Assembly: GCA_052034495.1 (NCBI GenBank)
Contig: JBPOIL010000012.1
Location: 13,644 to 77,643, forward strand
DNA from: Patescibacteria group bacterium
GTDB taxonomy: Bacteria; Patescibacteriota; Saccharimonadia; CAILAD01; JADZBC01
DNA: 64,000 nucleotides
Direction of reading: 5' to 3'
A program made the translations under genes and the position numbers. Positions within the stretch are counted from its first letter, which is position 1. The number at the start of each line of letters is the position of its first letter. The notes under the pieces were generated by a model, which saw only the letters and a list, made by a program, of their open reading frames with translations, ran no database searches and was not told the DNA's origin. Of the stretch, positions 2,262-39,320 are shown in pieces.

Positions 2262-2860
2262 ATAATTCCTGTAGGGCGGCGGTGGGGTTGAGCCCACCGC
2301 CGGGACGATGCTTGGGTCCGCGTAAACCCAGGTCGACGTGCCGGTCGACAGAAGCCCTTGCGAGCTCCTCGGGGTACCAGTCTAGTCTCTGCAAAACTGC
2401 AGTGACTATCGTGGCAGCAATCGAGGCCTGGCGGGCCAGCGATTACTCTGCAAATACCGGCGATTTTGCCGGGGTCGAGTTCCATTCGAGGGTCTCAACA
2501 GGTGCCCCTGCAGATTCCAACGAACTTTACCCAGACAGAGCCTGCAGAGCTCCATCTCTAGTGATCGGCGCAGCCATGCTTAACGTCCGTTTATAAATGG
2601 CTGATCACTATGACTTTTTCTTCGGACACCCCGGCTTCCGGGGACTTCTACTTAGCGCGACCTGCGCCTTAATTACCGGTCGCTAGCTTCCTGTAGTAGA
2701 AGGTTGGGCTTTTCGGGATTGGGTGAGAACCCGCGGCTGCCAGCCGCTGGTTTACCCCGCTTCAGCAGGAACTTCAGCGGTGCGGCCGCACCTCCCTAGA
2801 CAAGCTTTTGAGTGAGGGGTATCGACTCCTCCGGTGCATTTCTCAGCTCCGTCGCGACTC
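2262..2860. other. GC-rich, highly structured non-coding island between dnaE and rplS (about 600 nt)
   Basis: No credible ORF in any frame (translations are Arg/Pro/Ser-rich junk). Many perfect hairpins, e.g. GGCGGTGGG-gttgag-CCCACCGCC, GGGTGAGAACCC, GCGGCTG/CAGCCGC and GGTGCGG-cc-GCACC. GC visibly higher than the flanking genes. Confidence 0.3.
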
Positions 2861-2965
2861 ATTCGCATGTCAGAAGCGTATAATATCATAGTATTGATAT
2901 AATGTCAATAGCATTATTGCATATCTATTGCCTAGGTGGCGATAATATGCTAGACTCATAAAGTT

Positions 2966-3589
2966 ATGAACGCTATAGAACTCGTAGAAAAGAAGAATTA
3001 TAAAGCTAAGGTCGCAGACGTACGCCCTGGTGATACCGTTCGCGTACACCAAATGATTCGTGAAGGCAACAAGCAACGCGTTCAGGTATTCGAAGGTGTC
3101 GTGATTCGCCGTAAGAGCATGAACGGCTTGCAGGCCAGCATTACCGTGCGCAAGATTGCATCTGGCGTTGGGGTAGAAAAGACTTGGTTCCTACACTCGC
3201 CAAACGTAGTGAAGATCGAAGTTATGCGACGTGCAAAAGTGCGCCGAGCCTTCCTGGGCTACATGCGTGGACTGCGCGGTAAGTCTGCTCGTATGGCTGA
3301 GCAAGAGTTCGACCGTGCTGCCGCAAACGAAGCTGACGCGCGCACTAATGCTCAGATTGCAGCCGAAGCAGAGGCTGAAGTTGCCGCTGCTGAAACTCCA
3401 GCAGAGAATGCGGGCGAAGACGTAATGCAGCAGGCAGACACCGTTTCGACCGAAGAAGTTGCCAAAGAAGAAGCCAAAGAAGCCAAGCAGGCTGATCCAG
3501 AAAAAGACGTTGCCGCTGCCAGCGACGAATCTGTTGCCGAAAAGGTAGAGGCTGAAGCCGGCGAAGCCAAAGCCGAGCCAAAAGCTTAA
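2966..3589 (+). CDS. rplS: 50S ribosomal protein L19 with a long Ala/Glu-rich C-terminal extension
   Basis: N-terminal ~115 aa match L19 ([28 protein letters not shown]...). Residues ~120-207 are a low-complexity AAEAEAE/KAE tail. Confidence 0.9.
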
Positions 3590-3605
3590 ACTCAGAACTC
3601 TAACT

Positions 3606-3634
3606 AAAAACCGCCCATATGCAGGGCGGTTTTT
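3606..3634 (+). terminator. Rho-independent terminator after rplS
   Basis: aaaaaCCGCCCatatgcaGGGCGGttttt. Confidence 0.75.
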
Positions 3635-3653
3635 AGTTTGCTATACTCCAACC

Positions 3654-4256
3654 ATGATTTGGGCGAGTTATGATTACGAGATTGCTGCGAGGGGGAAAGG
3701 CTTGAGGCTGATCTCTGGGGCTGACGAAGTTGGCCGCGGCTGTTTGGCCGGTCCTCTCGTGGTTGGGATGGTAGTTTTGCCGCAGGGCTGCCAGCTGCAA
3801 TTGGCAGACTCCAAGCTTTTGAGTGCCAAAAAGCGAACGGCGTTAGCAAGTCTTATAGAACGACAAGCTCTCGCTTGGTCCCTCGGTAAAGTAGAACATA
3901 CAGAGATTGATGAGCTGGGTCTAAGTGCTGCTATCAGGCTCGCCTACGAGCGAGCTCTTGATAGCCTTGGCATAAAGCCTGATAGACTCGTAATTGATGG
4001 CCCGCATAGAATAATCGACCATGACTTCGTGGAGCCAATTGTGAAGGCGGATCAAAAGATTGCTTGCGTGGCGGCCGCTTCAATCATTGCGAAAGTCGCT
4101 AGGGATGAGTGGATGCAGCAGCAATCTAAGCTGTACCCAGGTTACGGTTTTGCCACGAACGTAGGCTACGGTAGCCCCCAGCATTTGGCAGCGCTCAAAG
4201 AATACGGTCCTAGCGCCATTCATCGCAAGAGCTTCAAAGTGAAGAGCCATGGCTAA
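3654..4256 (+). CDS. rnhB: ribonuclease HII
   Basis: DEVGRGCLAGPLVV catalytic motif; conserved rplS-rnhB neighbourhood. Confidence 0.9.
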   Translation: MIWASYDYEIAARGKGLRLISGADEVGRGCLAGPLVVGMVVLPQGCQLQLADSKLLSAKKRTALASLIERQALAWSLGKVEHTEIDELGLSAAIRLAYERALDSLGIKPDRLVIDGPHRIIDHDFVEPIVKADQKIACVAAASIIAKVARDEWMQQQSKLYPGYGFATNVGYGSPQHLAALKEYGPSAIHRKSFKVKSHG

Positions 4257-19197: not shown

Positions 19198-19226
19198 TTG
19201 ACATTTTAACGCTTACGTGATATTAT
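19198..19226 (+). promoter_or_regulatory. sigma70-type promoter for the GC-rich small gene
   Basis: Near-consensus TTGACA, 17-nt spacer, TATTAT. Confidence 0.5.
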
Positions 19227-19303
19227 TTATCTAACCTGCGCACAAGGCAAAGGTTACCCCGACAGAGGTTGGGGATGAGTTGAGCCTAGGAGGCCAACCA
19301 GCC

Positions 19304-19636
19304 ATGCAAACCGAAGTGGCAAGAGAAGAGCAGCACCGTCCCCGCCTCGGAAGCAGCTACGACGCTTCCGCGGTCCCCGTGGGGCAGGTGATGCAGGTCA
19401 ACACCCGCAACTCCGCCTACTACTTCGTCTTCACCGATGAGCGGCGCATCAACCGCACCGACATCACCGGGGTCTCCGTGACCACGACGAACAAGGGCAT
19501 CGCGGTGGGTGCGCCCGCCAGCGTGCGGGTCGACCGGGTGATCCGTCGCGGGCAGTCGCTCCGCTTCGGCGCCGGTCGTGGGACCACGACTTCCGACGTC
19601 GTCTCGGTCTACGTGGCGGGTCGCCAGGTCGTCTGA
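19304..19636 (+). CDS. hypothetical small protein (110 aa) encoded in a high-GC island; start taken at ATG 19304 (ORF track begins at TTG 19280)
   Basis: AGGAGG RBS 10 nt upstream of the ATG; own promoter and terminator. GC content visibly far above the genome background; a frame-by-frame GC3 count has not been done. Confidence 0.5.
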   Translation: MQTEVAREEQHRPRLGSSYDASAVPVGQVMQVNTRNSAYYFVFTDERRINRTDITGVSVTTTNKGIAVGAPASVRVDRVIRRGQSLRFGAGRGTTTSDVVSVYVAGRQVV

Positions 19637-19702
19637 CCTGGTCCACCACAACTGCAGTCTTGAATGAGATCCAAGACAACATGCAGAGACCACCTTGATC
19701 TC

Positions 19703-19728
19703 GAGCCCCCACGTTATCGTGGGGGCTC
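19703..19728 (+). terminator. terminator hairpin after the GC-rich small gene
   Basis: GAGCCCCCacgttatcgtGGGGGCTC followed by an AT-rich stretch. Confidence 0.6.
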
Positions 19729-31427: not shown

Positions 31428-31448
31428 TTCTCGAAGCAAGAACATACG

Positions 31449-31475
31449 AAAGACCCCTCATAATGAGGGGTCTTT
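31449..31475 (+). terminator. Rho-independent terminator after rpsG
   Basis: aaAGACCCCTCAtaaTGAGGGGTCTtt. Confidence 0.7.
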
Positions 31476-31510
31476 CGTATTGAGACGAGAGTATACTGGA
31501 AGAGTTATGA

Positions 31511-31534
31511 GGCCCTAGCGCATGCGCTAGGGCC
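31511..31534. repeat. perfect 24-nt palindrome GGCCCTAGCGCATGCGCTAGGGCC at the edge of the tdk island
   Basis: Read directly from the sequence; candidate terminator for the minus-strand island transcript, or a protein-binding site. Confidence 0.5.
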
Positions 31535-31557
31535 TCGGGTGAGGGTTGGTCTGAACT

Positions 31558-31776
31558 TCAGTCCGAAGGGTCTTCCGGGGGAAGGCGCTTGTCCCAGGGG
31601 ATCTCGCGAGGGCCACCCTGCAGGATGGTCGGAGCTTCTTCTTCTCCTCCTTCGCTGAGCAGGTGCCTTCCCGGAAGAGGGCTCCCGGTCGGCACAGTGG
31701 GCTCCAGCCCCGTGAATCCGGCCTGGAGGCGCGCACGAAGATCGGCGCCATCTCTCATTGCTTGGTCGTCAGCCAT
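31558..31776 (-). CDS. hypothetical acidic, Pro/Gly-rich small protein (72 aa) downstream of tdk in the high-GC island
   Basis: Same strand as tdk with a 77-nt gap; high GC; weak RBS; could be non-coding. Confidence 0.25.
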   Translation of the reverse strand: MADDQAMRDGADLRARLQAGFTGLEPTVPTGSPLPGRHLLSEGGEEEAPTILQGGPREIPWDKRLPPEDPSD

Positions 31777-31853
31777 CCTATTTGGCCTTGCCTTTCTGTT
31801 CGGTGATCAAGCCTTAGCCATATTAAACGAGCTTCCGCCCGAAGACAAGTGCA

Positions 31854-32399
31854 TTATGCGCGAACAAAGCATGTGCGACAGCGTGCCTCATAGCTATAGG
31901 TACCGTCCTCTGGCAGGATGGACGGAAGCCCTCCTGTGACTACCTCGCCGCCGTTGAGGACTTGGCTAAACCGTGCCTCATAGCTTCTGCACACGTCACA
32001 AACTGCGACAAGGCATTGCACACTTGTCGGCCCAAGTTCCATCAGGGCAACGGTGCCTTCGGTCAGTATGCCGCGATAGTCCATATCGAGCCCGACCGCG
32101 TACACAGTCGTCCCCCTGGATAGCAGTGTATCCAGTGAGCGCAGATCGTCTGGGCTGAACATATGCACTTCGTCTATACCGACTACGTCGTAGTCGGCAA
32201 GCCAGTCGACGTCGATTCCGTCGACCTTTGTCGTCTTGATGCTGGCTCCGGCACGAGAGCTCACTCGGTCTTCCCGGTCGTGCAGGTTGGGCTGCAGGAC
32301 TACCCACTTCAAATCGCTGTGCACGAGTGGCGAGAAGATCTTTATGAGCTCGAGCGATTTACCTGACTTCATGGGTCCCACGGTTAGGTGTAGTGGCAT
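31854..32399 (-). CDS. tdk: thymidine kinase, encoded in a high-GC island on the opposite strand between rpsG and fusA
   Basis: P-loop GPMKSGKS, VVGIDEVHMF, C-terminal zinc-ribbon cysteines (CDVC...CRTC). Start placed at the second ATG (AAGGAG RBS 9 nt upstream); the track ORF extends to 32408. Confidence 0.8.
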   Translation of the reverse strand: MPLHLTVGPMKSGKSLELIKIFSPLVHSDLKWVVLQPNLHDREDRVSSRAGASIKTTKVDGIDVDWLADYDVVGIDEVHMFSPDDLRSLDTLLSRGTTVYAVGLDMDYRGILTEGTVALMELGPTSVQCLVAVCDVCRSYEARFSQVLNGGEVVTGGLPSILPEDGTYSYEARCRTCFVRA

Positions 32400-32533
32400 T
32401 CGTTCCATCTCCTTACGGTTTCTTGACGTGATTATATTCTAGCTTACGAATCTAGCATTCTACCAGCCGTTAGTCGCATGAGGCCTATAGGCTAGGATTT
32501 TCCTTTGACGGCGTTGCATCCTGGGTTTTTACT

Positions 32534-32561
32534 TGATAAAGCGAAGATAATTCACTATAAT
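32534..32561 (+). promoter_or_regulatory. sigma70-type promoter for fusA-tuf
   Basis: TTGATA, 16-nt spacer, TATAAT. Confidence 0.45.
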
Positions 32562-32637
32562 TACCTAGGAATAAAGCACGGATAATGCAACCGGCTTTTT
32601 TGTTTACTAAGCTTACTAAGAAGGAACTTAACTTATC

Positions 32638-34746
<2,109 letters not shown>

Positions 34747-34767
34747 GTCGGTTCAAATTTAGAACAC

Positions 34768-34803
34768 AAAGAGACCTTGTCAGATTGACAAGGTCTCTTT
34801 GTT
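34768..34803 (+). terminator. Rho-independent terminator after fusA
   Basis: AAAGAGACCTTGTCAgatTGACAAGGTCTCTTTgtt. Confidence 0.75.
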
Positions 34804-34959
34804 AGGTTATGATACTGAGCGAGATCGACCAGGTCTTCTAGCAGACAGCCTAGTAGTAGGTAGTAGTCGAACGAGTCGGGAATGTTGAGCCCGACAAAGG
34901 CGATGAAAGCAGACGTGCTGCAGCACATCATCTGTTCTACTGAAAGCATTCACCGTTCC

Positions 34960-35345
34960 GCGCCGCCGCGTGAACTCAACCTCTGGCACGCTTCAGGTAA
35001 GCGCCGAGGTCGATAAAGTGGAGGAACTAGACTGGTTTGCAAAACCACATATCCTGCGAAAGCAGAGGCTCGGAGGCATTCGGGCGGTTCGTATCTTCGG
35101 GGTCAGGAATCTTCTCAAGACCCGTAAGGAACCAGATTGTGGGTGGCGTGCATAATGATTTCTATGCGCGCGCGTCGCACCTCGCGTTAACGCCTCACGA
35201 GCGTTGCGAGGTTTTCGGGAGACGCCGGTTGCCGTCAGGCAGCCACCAAGGTGTGTGGATTCTAGGTACCTCTGCCTGAGGAGGCCCGAGCCTAGGCTCC
35301 ACACACGCTCTGCCCCTGGCTTCCGCCAGGGGCGCTCTGCTTTAA
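34960..35345. other. GC-rich structured non-coding island in the unusually long fusA-tuf spacer
   Basis: No credible ORF. Long imperfect hairpin GGTGTGTGGA...CTAGG...CCTAG...TCCACACAC (about 35254-35308), followed by GCCCCTGGcttccgCCAGGGGC. Confidence 0.3.
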
Positions 35346-35352
35346 AAGTCTT

Positions 35353-35381
35353 TACATTGGAGCAGTTTTTACCTATAATCG
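35353..35381 (+). promoter_or_regulatory. sigma70-type promoter for tuf
   Basis: TTTACA, 17-nt spacer, TATAAT. Confidence 0.5.
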
Positions 35382-35461
35382 AAAAGTCTAAGGCCTAGAC
35401 ATATTTTTATGTGTCTTCGCCAAGCGCTTATAAATTTAACAACGTTCAACAAGGAGAATAT

Positions 35462-36646
35462 ATGGCAGAACAATTCGATCGCAGTAAGCCGCATGTTAAT
35501 GTCGGTACTATGGGGCACGTAGATCACGGTAAGACTACTCTTACTGCTGCAATCACCCACGTATTGGCTAAGAAGCTTCCTAGCGCAGTAAACAAGCCAA
35601 TTAACTACGATGAAATCGACAAGGCTCCAGAAGAGCGCGAGCGTGGAATCACTATCGCAACTTCTCACCAGGAGTACGAAAGCGAAAAGCGACACTATGC
35701 TCACGTCGATATGCCTGGTCACGCTGACTATGTAAAGAACATGATCACTGGTGCTGCTCAGATTGACGGTGCTGTATTGGTGGTATCTGCTGCTGATGGC
35801 CCAATGCCACAGACCCGAGAGCACGTTCTCTTGGCTCGACAGGTTGGTGTTCCATATATCCTTGTCTACATGAACAAGATGGATATGGCCGACCCAGAGC
35901 TTGCTGAGCTTGTTGAGATCGAAATCCGCGAACTCCTAGAAAAGAACGGCTACGACGAGAACGCCCCAATCATTAAGGGTTCTGCCCTTAAGGCACTCGA
36001 AGGCGATGCCGCTGCAGAAGACTCAATCATGGAGCTTGTGAAAGCTATGGACGAAAGTGTTCCAGAGCCAAAGCGCGAAATCGATAAGCCATTCCTAATG
36101 CCAATCGAAGACGTATTCTCAATCAAAGGTCGTGGTACGGTAGCTACCGGACGAATTGAACAGGGAATCGTGAACGTAGGTGAAGAAGTAGAGATCGTTG
36201 GCCTTCACGACACCAAAAAGACTACGGTAACTGGTGTAGAAATGTTCAAGAAGCTCCTCGACGAAGGTCGTGCTGGAGACAACGTTGGCTTACTCCTACG
36301 TGGTATTGAGCGAACTGATATCGAACGCGGTCAGGTTCTGGCTAAGCCAGGTTCAATCACCCCTCACACCGAGTTTGATTCTGAAGTTTACGTTCTTAAG
36401 AAGGAAGAGGGCGGTCGCCACACTCCATTCTTCAAGGGCTACAAGCCACAGTTTTACATCCGCACAACCGACGTTACTGGTGAAGTTACCCTACCAGACG
36501 GCGTAGAAATGGTAATGCCAGGGGATAACATCAAGATGAAGGTTAAGCTCATCGCCCCGATTGCCATGGAAGAAGGACTCCGATTCGCCATCCGCGAAGG
36601 TGGCCGAACCGTAGGTGCTGGTGTTGTAACTAAGATTAACAAGTAA
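35462..36646 (+). CDS. tuf: elongation factor Tu (track ORF starts 17 codons upstream at 35411)
   Basis: [26 protein letters not shown]; AAGGAG RBS 5 nt upstream of ATG 35462; 394 aa. Confidence 0.95.
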
Positions 36647-37151: not shown

Positions 37152-37457
37152 GTGGAAATCACGATTCACTCATCTCGTCTTAGGCGTGATGTAAGTGGGA
37201 AACTTGACCCGCACGAGGTAGAGGATTATACCCGCCTTGTAAGGACGTTGCTCAATGGCGCACCCAAGCTCAATATCACTCGGGTACGACTTGTCCTTGC
37301 AGAGGATCTGCCTACGGGGCTTGAGTGGCGCATCGAGGTTAAGTCTGCACCCTCTGCGGCAGACACGCGTGTTCACATCATGAAGCGCTTCAAGACACAC
37401 CTGCGCCACCCGAAGGTGGTCGATGGAAGTGACGTCGAAGTGACGTTCCTTTCTTAG
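37152..37457 (+). CDS. hypothetical protein (101 aa, GTG start)
   Basis: GAGGAG RBS 8 nt upstream of GTG; no recognisable motif. Confidence 0.4.
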   Translation: MEITIHSSRLRRDVSGKLDPHEVEDYTRLVRTLLNGAPKLNITRVRLVLAEDLPTGLEWRIEVKSAPSAADTRVHIMKRFKTHLRHPKVVDGSDVEVTFLS

Positions 37458-37530: not shown

Positions 37531-37563
37531 CCAAAAAGTACCCGAATAATAGGTACTTTTTGG
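37531..37563. terminator. bidirectional terminator (perfect palindrome with A-run and T-run)
   Basis: CCAAAAAGTACCCgaataataGGTACTTTTTGG. Confidence 0.65.
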
Positions 37564-37608
37564 TTAAGACAGAACAAAGGCATCAAGTGTTTAATAGCTT
37601 TGGTCCGC

Positions 37609-37638
37609 CCGCCTGACCCCGATGAAGGGGTCAGGCGG
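37609..37638. terminator. terminator hairpin overlapping the stop of the minus-strand ORF
   Basis: CCGCCTGACCCCgatgaaGGGGTCAGGCGG. Confidence 0.55.
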
Positions 37639-37924
37639 AGAATGCATCTTCAGGTACGAGACCCAATCGTGCAGGGGTGGAGAACGGCGGCTCCCAGTAG
37701 TGGTCATCGAAGCGTTCACGGATTGCAGCGATGACGACTTCTACCTGGTGGTCGGTCATCGCGACCTCTGCCACCTCGTAGGTGAGACCTGCCAGGTGTT
37801 GTACCCGTGCGCCTCTCTGGCCAAGTGAGACCAGCTCTTGCTGTAGGAAGTTGATGACGAGCTGATGATCATCTTCTGGAATCATCACCTGGAACTGCCG
37901 CATGACATCTTGTCGTACGTGCAT
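37631..37924 (-). CDS. hypothetical protein (97 aa; start at the ATG with AGGAGG RBS; track ORF extends to 37993)
   Basis: AGGAGG 9 nt upstream of ATG CAC GTA...; no recognisable motif. Confidence 0.4.
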   Translation of the reverse strand: MHVRQDVMRQFQVMIPEDDHQLVINFLQQELVSLGQRGARVQHLAGLTYEVAEVAMTDHQVEVVIAAIRERFDDHYWEPPFSTPARLGLVPEDAFSA

Positions 37925-38093
37925 TGCACCGAACCTCCTTTCGAAGTTTGTGGCTCGGTGAGCTACAGACTGTATCTGCAATTCACCGGCCACAATCCCT
38001 AAAAGTTTGCAAAGTGCTTAAGGCTATGCCTTAATGTGCACAAATCATACTACAGATAGGTTGACACGTCAATAAGAATGTTGAAAAAAAGAC

Positions 38094-38122
38094 TAGACAA
38101 ACAATGCTAGCTGTGTTACTAT
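38094..38122 (+). promoter_or_regulatory. sigma70-type promoter driving the large structured RNA
   Basis: TAGACA, 17-nt spacer, TACTAT, in an AT-rich stretch. Confidence 0.4.
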
Positions 38123-38128
38123 GTGTAT

Positions 38129-38677
38129 CTAAGTTTGGTTTACGCCAAATTGCACCTTATATTTGGACTTCGGTCCATACAATCAGCTCTTGATACATTG
38201 AGCGTTGATTGTATGGACCTGACACCTTAGGTAAAGTCCATTGAATTGAAATCCGATCCATTTGAGGCTACGGCCACAAGAAAGGGTAGTAGCTTGCACG
38301 GAAGAGCGCACGTTTGCTGGTTCGCCAGTGTGACGTCACCGTTTCTCCTAGCACGCTACAATGCCCTGTAGGGTCGGATGATACCGGAAGCAACGGCCCG
38401 AGGGCCACCGCTTCCTGGTGTCGCCAGAGAATTTACGCCACGCGGCTTGCCGTAGGTATTGTTCTCTGAGCTTCGCGCCTTCTGCTTCGGCAGAAGGTCA
38501 TACGCTGAGGGTCCCGCCCCCTCAGTCGCGCAGGGTGGGTTCCGCCACCTGCCCTTGCGCACGACGCGCCCCGGGATCCGCCGCCTGGGACGCGCAGGTC
38601 GGCGGGGTGGCCTCCGGGCCACCCCGCCGCACCCACCACGAGACCTTGAACTTTGTTCAGGGTCTTCTTTCATTTTT
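38129..38677 (+). ncRNA. candidate large structured ncRNA (~550 nt) of unknown class, promoter to intrinsic terminator; its 3' third is extremely GC-rich
   Basis: No credible ORF. Series of perfect hairpins: GGTCCATACAATCA/TGATTGTATGGACC (38172-38219); CCTTCTGC-UUCG-GCAGAAGG tetraloop (38478-38497); CTGAGGG/CCCTCAG (38505-38525); GGCGGGGTGGCC-tccg-GGCCACCCCGCC. Terminator GAGACC...GGTCTTC plus T-run at 38640-38677. Motifs AAAGTCC (38233) after the first hairpin and GGAAGAGCGCAC (38300) are reminiscent of RNase P RNA, but the spacing does not fit. Confidence 0.4.
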
Positions 38678-38727
38678 GGATTAACTTTCTCTTCGACTCC
38701 CCATAGTTTTTATGCTTAAATAGAGTA

Positions 38728-38991
38728 ATGAAGAATAAGGGCGGCAAAAGGTATTACGAGTCTGACTTCGCTTTTTTGGTAAAGGCGGGCCTTTATCTCA
38801 TCCTCGGACTTACATGGATATCGATTAACGGACATAGAGTGATCCCGATAGGTGTAATCCTGGGCTTTATATTCTCTAAGGTTGATGTGCTAAGGATTGA
38901 TCGCAAGATAGAATATGCTCTACTCGTCGTTGGGGCGCTCTTAGGGCTGGTTTTTACGGGCATTGGCTTAACGATCTCCATTAGTCTATAG
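38728..38991 (+). CDS. small hydrophobic membrane protein (87 aa, two predicted TM helices)
   Basis: Hydrophobic stretches LYLILGLTWISI and VGALLGLVFTGIGLTISI. Confidence 0.4.
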   Translation: MKNKGGKRYYESDFAFLVKAGLYLILGLTWISINGHRVIPIGVILGFIFSKVDVLRIDRKIEYALLVVGALLGLVFTGIGLTISISL

Positions 38992-38993
38992 TC

Positions 38994-39320
38994 ATGGAGT
39001 TTACGCCTACACCCGCATTTTGGGTCAGTTTGCTGCCGGTGCCATTTTTGACCTACCTTAATATTAAAGTCGGCTTCCTTTTACTCGAGCTCCGCAGGCG
39101 CAACCGTGTCAAACGTATAAAATCAAGCAAGCTCTACAACCAGGGGAGGGCACTAGGTATGATATCTGCTTGCTTTGCCTTGTTGCCTGCAATCTTGGAG
39201 TGGCGTATATTCGTTCAGAACCCATGGTGGGCAATATCCTACCTCATAGGTGGTATTTTGGGCGTGCTTGCGCTCAGAATGGTACAAAGGGGCCTCAAGG
39301 CCGAGCTGCGGCGTAAGTAG
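38994..39320 (+). CDS. small hydrophobic membrane protein (108 aa, 3 predicted TM helices), 2 nt after the preceding ORF
   Basis: Hydrophobic segments; basic loop RRRNRVKRIKSSK. Confidence 0.4.
   Translation: MEFTPTPAFWVSLLPVPFLTYLNIKVGFLLLELRRRNRVKRIKSSKLYNQGRALGMISACFALLPAILEWRIFVQNPWWAISYLIGGILGVLALRMVQRGLKAELRRK

Follow-up and report, generated by a model that had tools for sequence, protein, structure and literature searches.

What occupies the long spacer between fusA and tuf, the genes for EF-G and EF-Tu, in a Saccharibacteria genome (TM7, Patescibacteria; G+C ~49.5%)? The stretch analyzed here, hereafter the window, is 64,000 nucleotides (nt) of that genome; locally, rpoC, rpsL and rpsG are followed by a tdk island on the minus strand and then by fusA, the spacer, tuf and rpsJ. 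The fusA open reading frame (ORF) lies at 32638-34746 and tuf runs from an ATG at 35462 to 36646, both on the plus strand, leaving 715 nt between them (34747-35461). Among other bacteria, the gap is 24-204 nt in 41 loci with fusA directly upstream of tuf, three Patescibacteria outliers excepted. A first-pass annotation of the window had been right to call the spacer unusually long, although its figure of ~660 nt was too low, and had offered two readings of the segment, as what is left of an inserted cassette or as a small RNA. Read from fusA to tuf, the spacer consists of a terminator, a promoter, ~520 nt without a credible ORF, a second terminator and a second promoter. We consider it likely that the central unit encodes an independently transcribed, trans-acting large noncoding RNA (ncRNA) of about 520 nt on the plus strand, conserved in shape and representing a new family in one Saccharibacteria lineage. 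The earlier proposal of a small RNA would then have been correct as to RNA, but not as to small, as the unit spans about 520 nt and three domains.

The unit is retained in related genomes. In the one-genome-per-species set of GTDB, the best EF-Tu loci are Saccharibacteria metagenome-assembled genomes with 80-83% identity, while three contigs with identical EF-Tu have a spacer that is 100% identical and thus uninformative. A graded series of EF-G homologues yielded seven further distinct spacers, from loci whose EF-G is 92-98% identical to that of the window: L084, L085 (identical to L086 and L097), L087 (identical to L088), L089, L096, L098 (identical to L100) and L101. In all eight distinct Saccharibacteria genomes, the window included, the spacer is 693-753 nt long, and the unit between its flanking signals measures 482-557 nt. 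This constancy of length is accompanied by extensive sequence turnover: pairwise spacer identity is 47-74% between distinct genomes (63% for the window and L084, 58% for the window and L087), and no 6-mer is common to even seven of the eight sequences. Third codon positions of fusA are 42-54% identical between distinct genomes and 44-48% identical to the window, suggesting that synonymous sites are near saturation among the carriers.

Beyond these genomes, the same junction holds other things. Three pairs of relatives with EF-G identities of 83-85% do not have the unit: the fusA-tuf gap is 126 nt in L094/L095, 1072 nt with two small ORFs in L090/L091 (L090 6194-7265) and 1753 nt with three ORFs in L092/L093 (L092 6128-7880). 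Among GTDB relatives, the gap is 123 nt in L003 and 133 nt in L078; L001 has 1605 nt (2397-4000) with a 402-amino-acid (aa) minus-strand ORF, which by eye we take to resemble a pyridoxal phosphate-dependent enzyme, and in L004 tuf follows unrelated genes, not fusA. The small ORFs in the junctions of L001, L090 and L092 gave no convincing Pfam match. The window spacer showed no similarity by blastn or nhmmer to 80 fusA-tuf loci or to the rest of the window. No further member emerged from an exact-pattern metagenome scan with the conserved tuf promoter; a degenerate version returned only four unrelated loci, and a genome-collection scan with EF-Tu found only more distant Saccharibacteria, all without the unit. 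Judged from these loci, the fusA-tuf junction is variable across Saccharibacteria, and the content described here is fixed within one lineage.

The rpsG-fusA junction (31428-32637 in the window) also varies inside the carrier lineage, with tdk and a small ORF in the window, L087 and L101, other genes including a NUDIX protein in L084, and only 159-344 nt in L085, L089, L096 and L098. The first-pass annotation had described the str operon as a hotspot of insertion or decay; as context this holds, given that both junctions vary among Saccharibacteria, but the decay part does not. Could the unit nevertheless be the leftover of an inserted cassette or of a decayed gene, without function and with hairpins that are incidental? 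The two variable junctions, with unrelated insertions in other Saccharibacteria lineages, would be in keeping with such an origin, as would the low identity of the spacers to one another. A remnant would not, however, be expected to keep its length, promoter, terminator and order of helices near synonymous saturation in eight genomes, nor to accumulate compensatory changes far in excess of slid and shuffled controls (see below). The unit has no DNA similarity to the junction contents of other lineages and no conserved ORF or pseudogene signal, and in genomes as small and compact as those of Saccharibacteria (678 kb in one example), 0.5 kb of junk is not expected to stay. We therefore give the idea of a remnant almost no credence.

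Signals at both ends of the unit point to a gene of its own. As had been noted before, fusA is followed by an intrinsic terminator (34766-34802, plus strand), a perfect 17-bp inverted repeat (34766-34782 with 34786-34802) with a 3-nt loop, then TTTGTT. Of the seven relatives, at least five (L087, L089, L096, L098 and L101) have a counterpart hairpin with a different sequence. Absent from the earlier description was a second near-consensus promoter, at 34785-34813 on the plus strand, whose -35 box sits in the loop and 3' arm of this terminator: TTGACA (34785-34790) is followed after 17 nt by TATGAT (34808-34813), with 11 of 12 consensus positions matched. L087 and L101 show this overlap of promoter and fusA terminator too, with stems that differ in sequence. 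L085 has no fusA-terminator hairpin, and only 14 nt separate its fusA stop codon from the -35 box. In all eight sequences, TTGAC is invariant and TAnnnT lies 17-18 nt from it, close after the fusA stop; the -10 variants are TATGAT, TATTGT, TATTAT and TAATAT.

The downstream end of the unit is marked by a second intrinsic terminator (35311-35344, plus strand) consisting of a 10-bp GC-rich stem, the loop UUCC and the tail CUCUGCUUU. Its arms, GCCCCTGGC and GCCAGGGGC (35312-35320 and 35325-35333), are those of a hairpin that had previously been described as terminator-like, and it is likewise called terminator-like on the plus strand in our analysis. Every one of the eight genomes has a GC-rich hairpin of 8-14 bp at this site, with compensatory changes at seven of eight positions and a U-rich tail on the plus strand only. 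A promoter, a terminator and a shared strand are, going by these signals, the generic attributes of a stand-alone ncRNA gene.

The boundary beyond the terminator is formed by the tuf promoter and 5' untranslated region (UTR) at 35351-35461 on the plus strand. The promoter, TTTACA-17-TATAAT (35351-35379), again matches at 11 of 12 positions, in agreement with its earlier description as near-consensus, and is kept as CTTTACA-17-TATAAT in all eight distinct genomes. In a seven-sequence alignment, the longest invariant runs of the whole spacer are the -35 and -10 boxes of tuf and the start of the UTR. These runs fall within the promoter and the first ~35 nt of the 5' UTR (CGAAAAGTCTAAGGCCTAGACAT..., with a small hairpin GUCUA-AGGCC-UAGAC), which suggests a constrained tuf leader element separate from the large RNA.

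This arrangement bears on the possibility that the unit is instead a very long cis-acting leader or attenuator of tuf, in which transcripts from upstream would enter tuf unless the terminator forms, so that EF-Tu would be tuned by a ligand, a protein or a ribosome signal. The unit does always lie upstream of tuf in the same orientation, its terminator is ~17 nt upstream of the tuf -35 box, and the imperfect U tail in all eight sequences makes partial read-through plausible. However, the conserved TTTACA-17-TATAAT promoter lies between the terminator and tuf, an arrangement that does not fit a riboswitch or attenuator, and tuf therefore needs no promoter farther upstream. In addition, about 520 nt in three domains is several times the size of known leaders and riboswitches, the unit has no conserved nucleotides resembling a ligand pocket, and by-eye inspection of the window revealed no conserved antiterminator pairing for the 5' arm of the terminator. 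We consider a leader of this kind unlikely, and favor an ncRNA gene that ends before the tuf promoter.

The predicted RNA extends from 34820 to 35344 on the plus strand, where its start is placed 6-8 nt past the -10 box and its end at the U-rich tail. All the helices that follow are on the same strand and belong to the predicted fold; counts of compensatory changes for P5 through P9 and for P12 are those of a curated helix table evaluated further below. The RNA would begin with a 5'-terminal hairpin, P0 (34821-34837; GAGAUC/GGUCUU), found with differing sequences in five of the eight genomes (the window, L084, L085, L089 and L101) and absent from L087, L096 and L098. A 5' domain of ~185 nt follows (34841-35040), closed by the long-range helix P1 (34841-34853 with 35027-35040). 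In a four-member alignment, P1 has 13 pairs, eight of them with compensatory changes, and 92% of its cells are paired; across sequences it has 10-14 bp and closes a domain of ~145-185 nt. P1 is part of the single-sequence minimum-energy fold of L084, L087, L101, L085, L089, L096 and L098, and in the window the consensus fold that includes it costs 2.1 kcal/mol over the unconstrained minimum. The last hairpin of this domain, P4 (34985-35005), presents UUCAGGUA in its loop and flanks (34992-34999), the 5' partner of a proposed loop-loop contact discussed below.

A short A-rich linker separates the 5' domain from P5, which opens a central four-way junction (35045-35142). Here P5 (35045-35049 with 35138-35142; compensatory changes at 2 of 5 positions) closes P6, P7 and P8. 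P6 (35054-35065) has a GAAA loop in three sequences and compensatory changes at all four positions, and P7 (35068-35085), with 7-8 bp and a tetraloop, has them at all seven. P8 (35086-35133) consists of two stacked segments around a purine-rich internal loop (GACCCGUAAGGAACC in the window), with compensatory changes at 3 of 4 positions in the outer segment and 2 of 4 in the inner one. The junction recurs in the single-sequence folds of six sequences.

The 3' portion of the RNA begins with the P9 hairpin (35147-35170), in which CGUGCAUA pairs with UAUGCGCG around the 8-nt loop AUGAUUUC. P9 is present in all eight sequences with 7-10 bp, has compensatory changes at seven of seven positions and is 100% paired in the four-member alignment. 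P10 (35179-35186 with 35205-35212, and an apical stem 35190-35193 with 35201-35204) belongs to a set of similar, putatively homologous hairpins in seven sequences, with L085 doubtful, and a P11-like hairpin (35227-35233 with 35238-35244) is found only in the window, L084, L085 and L089. The last element before the terminator is P12, a long three-segment hairpin (35251-35306) whose apical stem-loop bears the motif CCUGCCUGAAGG and whose apical loop and closing pair, UGCCUGAG (35273-35280), form the 3' partner of the proposed contact. Its outer arms (35251-35266 and 35291-35306, 88% complementary) make up the long imperfect hairpin that the first-pass annotation had pointed out; that hairpin and the terminator, the only ones it had named within the unit, are just the 3' end of the whole. 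Compensatory changes occur at five of five positions of the basal P12 stem and four of four of the apical stem, and the basal stem starts with GUGUG, CGGCC, GCUCA, GGCGA or CCACC, depending on the genome. In independent domain-by-domain, single-sequence folds, the helices came in the same order in all eight sequences; group C (L096 and L098) has no P6 or P7 and keeps P1, P5, P8, P9, P10, P12 and the terminator.

Is this fold a property that selection has maintained? Composition alone sets the unit apart to a degree, with G+C of ~57% and 200-nt windows of 0.525-0.595 compared to 0.495 for the whole window, so the earlier label of GC-rich is only moderately true. The single-sequence folding energy falls below that of shuffled sequences on both strands (z = -4.3 for the plus and -4.7 for the minus strand); it therefore does not decide the strand, and comparative data do. 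Plain MAFFT alignment of all eight sequences misaligns the helices, and we consequently relied on tests within group A (the window, L084, L087 and L101), which can be aligned by sequence alone, together with single-sequence folds, a structure-annotated alignment and the curated helix table.

RNAalifold predicted 85 pairs in 14 helices for group A, with compensatory double changes in 40 of the 85. Standard pairs filled 89.4% of cells, compared to 37-44% when the 3' partners were slid by 1-3 columns, and both-side changes fell from 40 pairs to 6-14 in the slid versions. None of 500 within-column shuffles reached any of these observed measures. As the structure was derived from the group A alignment itself, which inflates the paired fraction, a further control shuffled whole columns while keeping gap pattern and conservation class intact. 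The real alignment had a consensus energy of -76.1 kcal/mol, compared to -24.3 +/- 4.2 kcal/mol in column shuffles (z = -12.4; best shuffle, -34.8). G-U cells outnumbered A-C cells by 43 to 9, which points to the plus strand as the folded one, in agreement with the orientation of the promoter and terminator. A count of shared architecture gave 38 column pairs common to at least four sequences, compared to 0-8 in shuffled sequences, a difference that carries little weight with relatedness uncontrolled.

Covariance models built from group A allowed the remaining sequences to be approached independently. Model R2, of the central domain (141 positions, 29 pairs), was run with filters off on both strands of 76 kb from eight other loci; its top two matches were L085 (28.3 bits, E = 3e-5) and L089 (13.5 bits, E = 0.12), both placed exactly at the expected site, and it found no match in lineages without a long spacer. 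An alignment based on R2 that includes three reverse-strand hairpin matches was left out of the counts. Model R1, of the 5' domain, recovered only its own four sequences and not the other four members; the interior of the 5' domain has therefore been remodeled.

Within this turnover, only two sequence motifs survive in six of the eight genomes, and they are complementary: the hairpin that ends the 5' domain bears YCAGGN in its loop, and P12 bears NCCUGR in its apical loop, with CAGG and CCUG invariant in the six. In the window, UCAGGU of the 5' domain probably pairs with GCCUGA of the P12 apical loop in a kissing contact that would tie the 5' and 3' domains together. The number of contiguous pairs that could form is eight in the window and L084, six in L087, L085 and L089, and five in L101. 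The flanks vary in step, with U-A on one side in the window, L084 and L087 versus C-G in L085 and L089, and U-G, U-A or C-G on the other, with two mismatched cells in all. L096 and L098 make a weaker case, with CCCCAA in the P12 loop and UUGGGG in a different hairpin of the 5' domain.

These elements can be assembled into a working model. RNA polymerase would start at the near-consensus promoter of sigma-70 type, with its -35 box inside the fusA terminator, and would stop at the GC-rich intrinsic terminator that shortly precedes tuf's own promoter. The transcript would fold into the 5' hairpin, the 5' domain under its 13-bp long-range helix, the four-way junction with its GNRA-capped arm, then several hairpins and the long three-segment 3' hairpin, and pairing between the P12 apical loop and the hairpin loop of the 5' domain would clamp both ends of the molecule together. 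Because the helices and the contact are kept while primary sequence is nearly gone, we infer an action in trans that depends on global shape and not on a conserved core for catalysis or ligand binding. Such an RNA might be a scaffold, might assemble with itself or might be the RNA component of a ribonucleoprotein. From its fixed site between the genes for EF-G and EF-Tu, its expression may be coupled to the translation apparatus.

Several points weigh against an independently expressed RNA that acts through its shape. The promoter, both ends of the RNA and its independent expression are predicted from sequence signals; in L085, which has no fusA terminator, the RNA may also arise by read-through from fusA, and the U tails of the terminator are imperfect in all eight sequences, such that read-through into tuf is possible. 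Ribozymes and riboswitches do not usually have so few conserved nucleotides, and this scarcity offers no clue to function. The comparison covers eight distinct sequences from one narrow lineage, too few for formal per-pair significance of the R-scape type. The two most divergent members, L096 and L098, are without P6 and P7 and were missed by both covariance models, so their homology rests on synteny, signals and partial architecture. Finally, the curated table (40 pair positions and 274 cells from P5, P6, P7, both parts of P8, P9 and basal and apical P12) has compensatory changes at 34 of the 40 positions, compared to 7-17 in slid controls with 31-43% pairing, but it was drawn from each sequence's own fold, is 100% paired by construction, leans toward the model and is illustrative; its worth is that the helices recur at equivalent places with unrelated sequences.

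If the unit is not RNA, it could in principle be one or more small protein-coding genes missed by gene callers. ORFs of 44-103 aa do occur on both strands of the spacer, the longest of 103 aa on the minus and 80 aa on the plus strand, and some of the short ORFs are similar between the window and L084 or between the window and L087. However, no ORF of the unit is conserved: their strand, position and frame change from one of the eight sequences to another, which bears out the earlier remark that the spacer has no credible ORF. The cross-matches, confined to these closer relatives, most simply appear to reflect nucleotide similarity. Gene callers placed zero genes in the spacer of the related contigs that extend as far as tuf, indels in the spacer alignment are not multiples of three, and substitutions keep base pairing, not codons. 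Missed coding genes thus seem a very poor explanation, and we return to the question of what sort of RNA the unit might be.

The unit might be a highly divergent copy of a known RNA, such as RNase P RNA, transfer-messenger RNA (tmRNA), signal recognition particle (SRP) RNA, 6S RNA, OLE, ROOL, GOLLD, HEARO or others, that Rfam fails to recognize. Its size is within the range of RNase P RNA and tmRNA, and Patescibacteria are thinly represented in the seed alignments of RNA families. We searched with the 4227 covariance models of Rfam 15, which include RNase P, tmRNA, SRP, 6S, OLE, GOLLD, ROOL, HEARO, raiA, riboswitches and ribosomal-protein leaders. In the window between 34000 and 36000, the only matches at E <= 1 were mir-553, on the fusA terminator, and SAM-II; in the seven relatives' loci, no spacer match was found at the same threshold. 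The SAM-II match (35012-35070) scored 20.7 bits, where the gathering score is 44; as the relatives do not have it, it is put down to chance. The 561-nt unit alone gave four chance hairpin matches at E <= 10, none near its threshold. ARAGORN found five tRNAs in the window, none in the spacer, and no tmRNA.

Signature motifs told the same story. Those searched for RNase P, tmRNA and SRP RNA are not conserved, with no motif occurring in more than two of the eight sequences. The RNase P motifs GAAAGUC, of conserved region I (CR-I), and ACAGAA, of CR-V, are found in none of the eight, and relaxed versions each match L101 only; the T-arm and 5' GGGG motifs of tmRNA are not conserved (one chance match, in L089). 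No RNase P-type P1 joins both ends, as the 5' end is the local hairpin P0 and the 3' end the terminator hairpin, and the P1 of the present fold encloses just the initial ~200 nt; the ends are not paired with each other, unlike those of RNase P RNA and tmRNA. Sister lineages with a spacer of 123-133 nt have no such unit at the site. A divergent known RNA therefore appears very improbable, although a little less so than missed coding genes or a remnant, and we favor a new family. Two more specific candidates were also set aside: 6S RNA, because the fold is multi-domain with a four-way junction rather than a single hairpin and the Rfam 6S models are silent, and a CsrB/RsmZ-type sponge, because the 5-11 GGA trimers per ~520 nt are about what composition predicts and GGA is not among the enriched trimers. 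The relatives, then, share the spacer, and no known RNA or annotated gene matches it. In the literature, we found no description of a structured RNA at the fusA-tuf site of Saccharibacteria or other Patescibacteria; the annotation of a 678-kb Nanosynbacter genome by the Prokaryotic Genome Annotation Pipeline lists two ncRNAs only (PMC8830319).

Which known RNAs, then, does the unit resemble? Bacterial RNAs with complex folds of more than ~400 nt are rare, and those that are understood are ribozymes, ribonucleoprotein cores and self-assembling cages. Like OLE, GOLLD, ROOL, HEARO and raiA, the unit is several hundred nt long and multi-domain, with covariation, GNRA-capped arms, a probable long-range contact, an apparent promoter and terminator of its own and a narrow taxonomic range. 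Unlike them, it has no Rfam match, has almost no conserved primary sequence and is so far known from eight Saccharibacteria genomes only. Those classes have many invariant nucleotides, and their typical genomic contexts differ from a fixed site in the str operon. Long intergenic regions enriched in G+C, a property that the unit shares, are what GC-rich intergenic region (GC-IGR) pipelines exploit (PMC11109978), and OLE, ROOL and GOLLD form RNA-only multimeric assemblies (PMC12286853). By analogy, RNA-only assembly is one possible mode for an RNA conserved in shape.

Other systems share single features with the unit. Like 6S RNA, it keeps structure far better than sequence and appears to be a gene in its own right, with a strong promoter; shape-dependent action in trans is plausible for it. 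6S RNA is about 180-200 nt long and forms one long hairpin whose central bubble mimics an open promoter; the unit, by contrast, has about 520 nt, three domains, a four-way junction and a loop-loop contact. It is akin to RNase P RNA and tmRNA in size class, in a complex fold with long-range helices and pseudoknots, and in a possible link to the translation apparatus, and differs from them in that their signature motifs, pairing of the termini and ARAGORN or Rfam matches are all wanting and in its absence from the site in sister lineages. Like the leaders of ribosomal-protein and translation-factor genes, it lies inside the str/S10 cluster, directly before the gene of a translation factor, and has a terminator hairpin at its end; unlike them, it has a promoter of its own, is followed by a conserved promoter before tuf and is several times longer, and we identified no mimic of a protein-binding site in it. 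Overall, the unit seems most like OLE, ROOL and GOLLD in its working, and most like 6S RNA in putting shape over sequence.

With somewhat less confidence than in the RNA itself, we lean toward regarding the unit as an undescribed class: a tertiary-structured ncRNA of ~0.5 kb in the translation-factor operon of ultra-small episymbionts, which keeps its shape and a covarying contact, would have a scaffold, self-assembling or ribonucleoprotein role, and may share the gene cluster with at least one more unit of its kind. Each new class of large RNA has so far been a lead to new RNA biochemistry. The retention of about half a kilobase of noncoding sequence in a compact genome, with the fold preserved through sequence turnover, argues for strong selection on an undescribed RNA function. 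Predictions at nucleotide resolution are in place for the strand and gene boundaries, for about 13 helices and for one tertiary contact, and eight natural variants are at hand. The str operon of the carrier lineage would on this reading be interrupted by independent transcription units, and not merely decaying.

A second candidate structured RNA lies between rpsJ and rplC (38094-38680, plus strand). It is about 520 nt long, reaches a G+C content of 60-68%, has many GC-rich hairpins and is bounded by a promoter-like TAGACA-17-TACTAT with TG (38094-38122) and a terminator (38640-38676). In a two-sequence alignment with L087 9000-9640, 108 pairs were predicted, 28 of them with compensatory changes. 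Rfam gave no match to this unit even at E <= 10; GAAAGGGUAG...GGAAGAGCGCAC within it may resemble the RNase P CR-II/CR-III region, though the RNase P models do not match. The ribosomal-protein cluster of the carrier lineage may thus host more than one large structured RNA.

Other elements of the window were noted in passing. A segment of ~87 nt at 37552-37638 is 82-88% identical in L084, L087, L089 and L098, far over the neutral level, and contains the hairpins AAAAAGTACC...GGTACTTTTT and CCGCCTGACCCC...GGGGTCAGGCGG; it may be a bidirectional terminator plus the 3' end of a minus-strand ORF (37631-37993). Just after a tRNA-Leu gene, an island of 65% G+C (19199-19720), compared to 49.5% for the genome, combines a promoter-like TTGACA and the ribosome-binding site GGAGG with an ORF of 110 aa (19304-19636, plus strand) that has no Pfam match and with a terminator-like hairpin (CCCCCACG...CGTGGGGG). 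From these features, it looks like a foreign small gene, not an RNA. Finally, the interval from rpsJ to rplC also contains three small plus-strand ORFs without a Pfam match (37152-37457, 101 aa; 38728-38991, 87 aa; and 38994-39320, 108 aa). Two of them are conserved as protein, with identities of 52% in L085, 83% in L087 and 61% in L094, and these ORFs probably encode real small proteins inserted in the S10 cluster.

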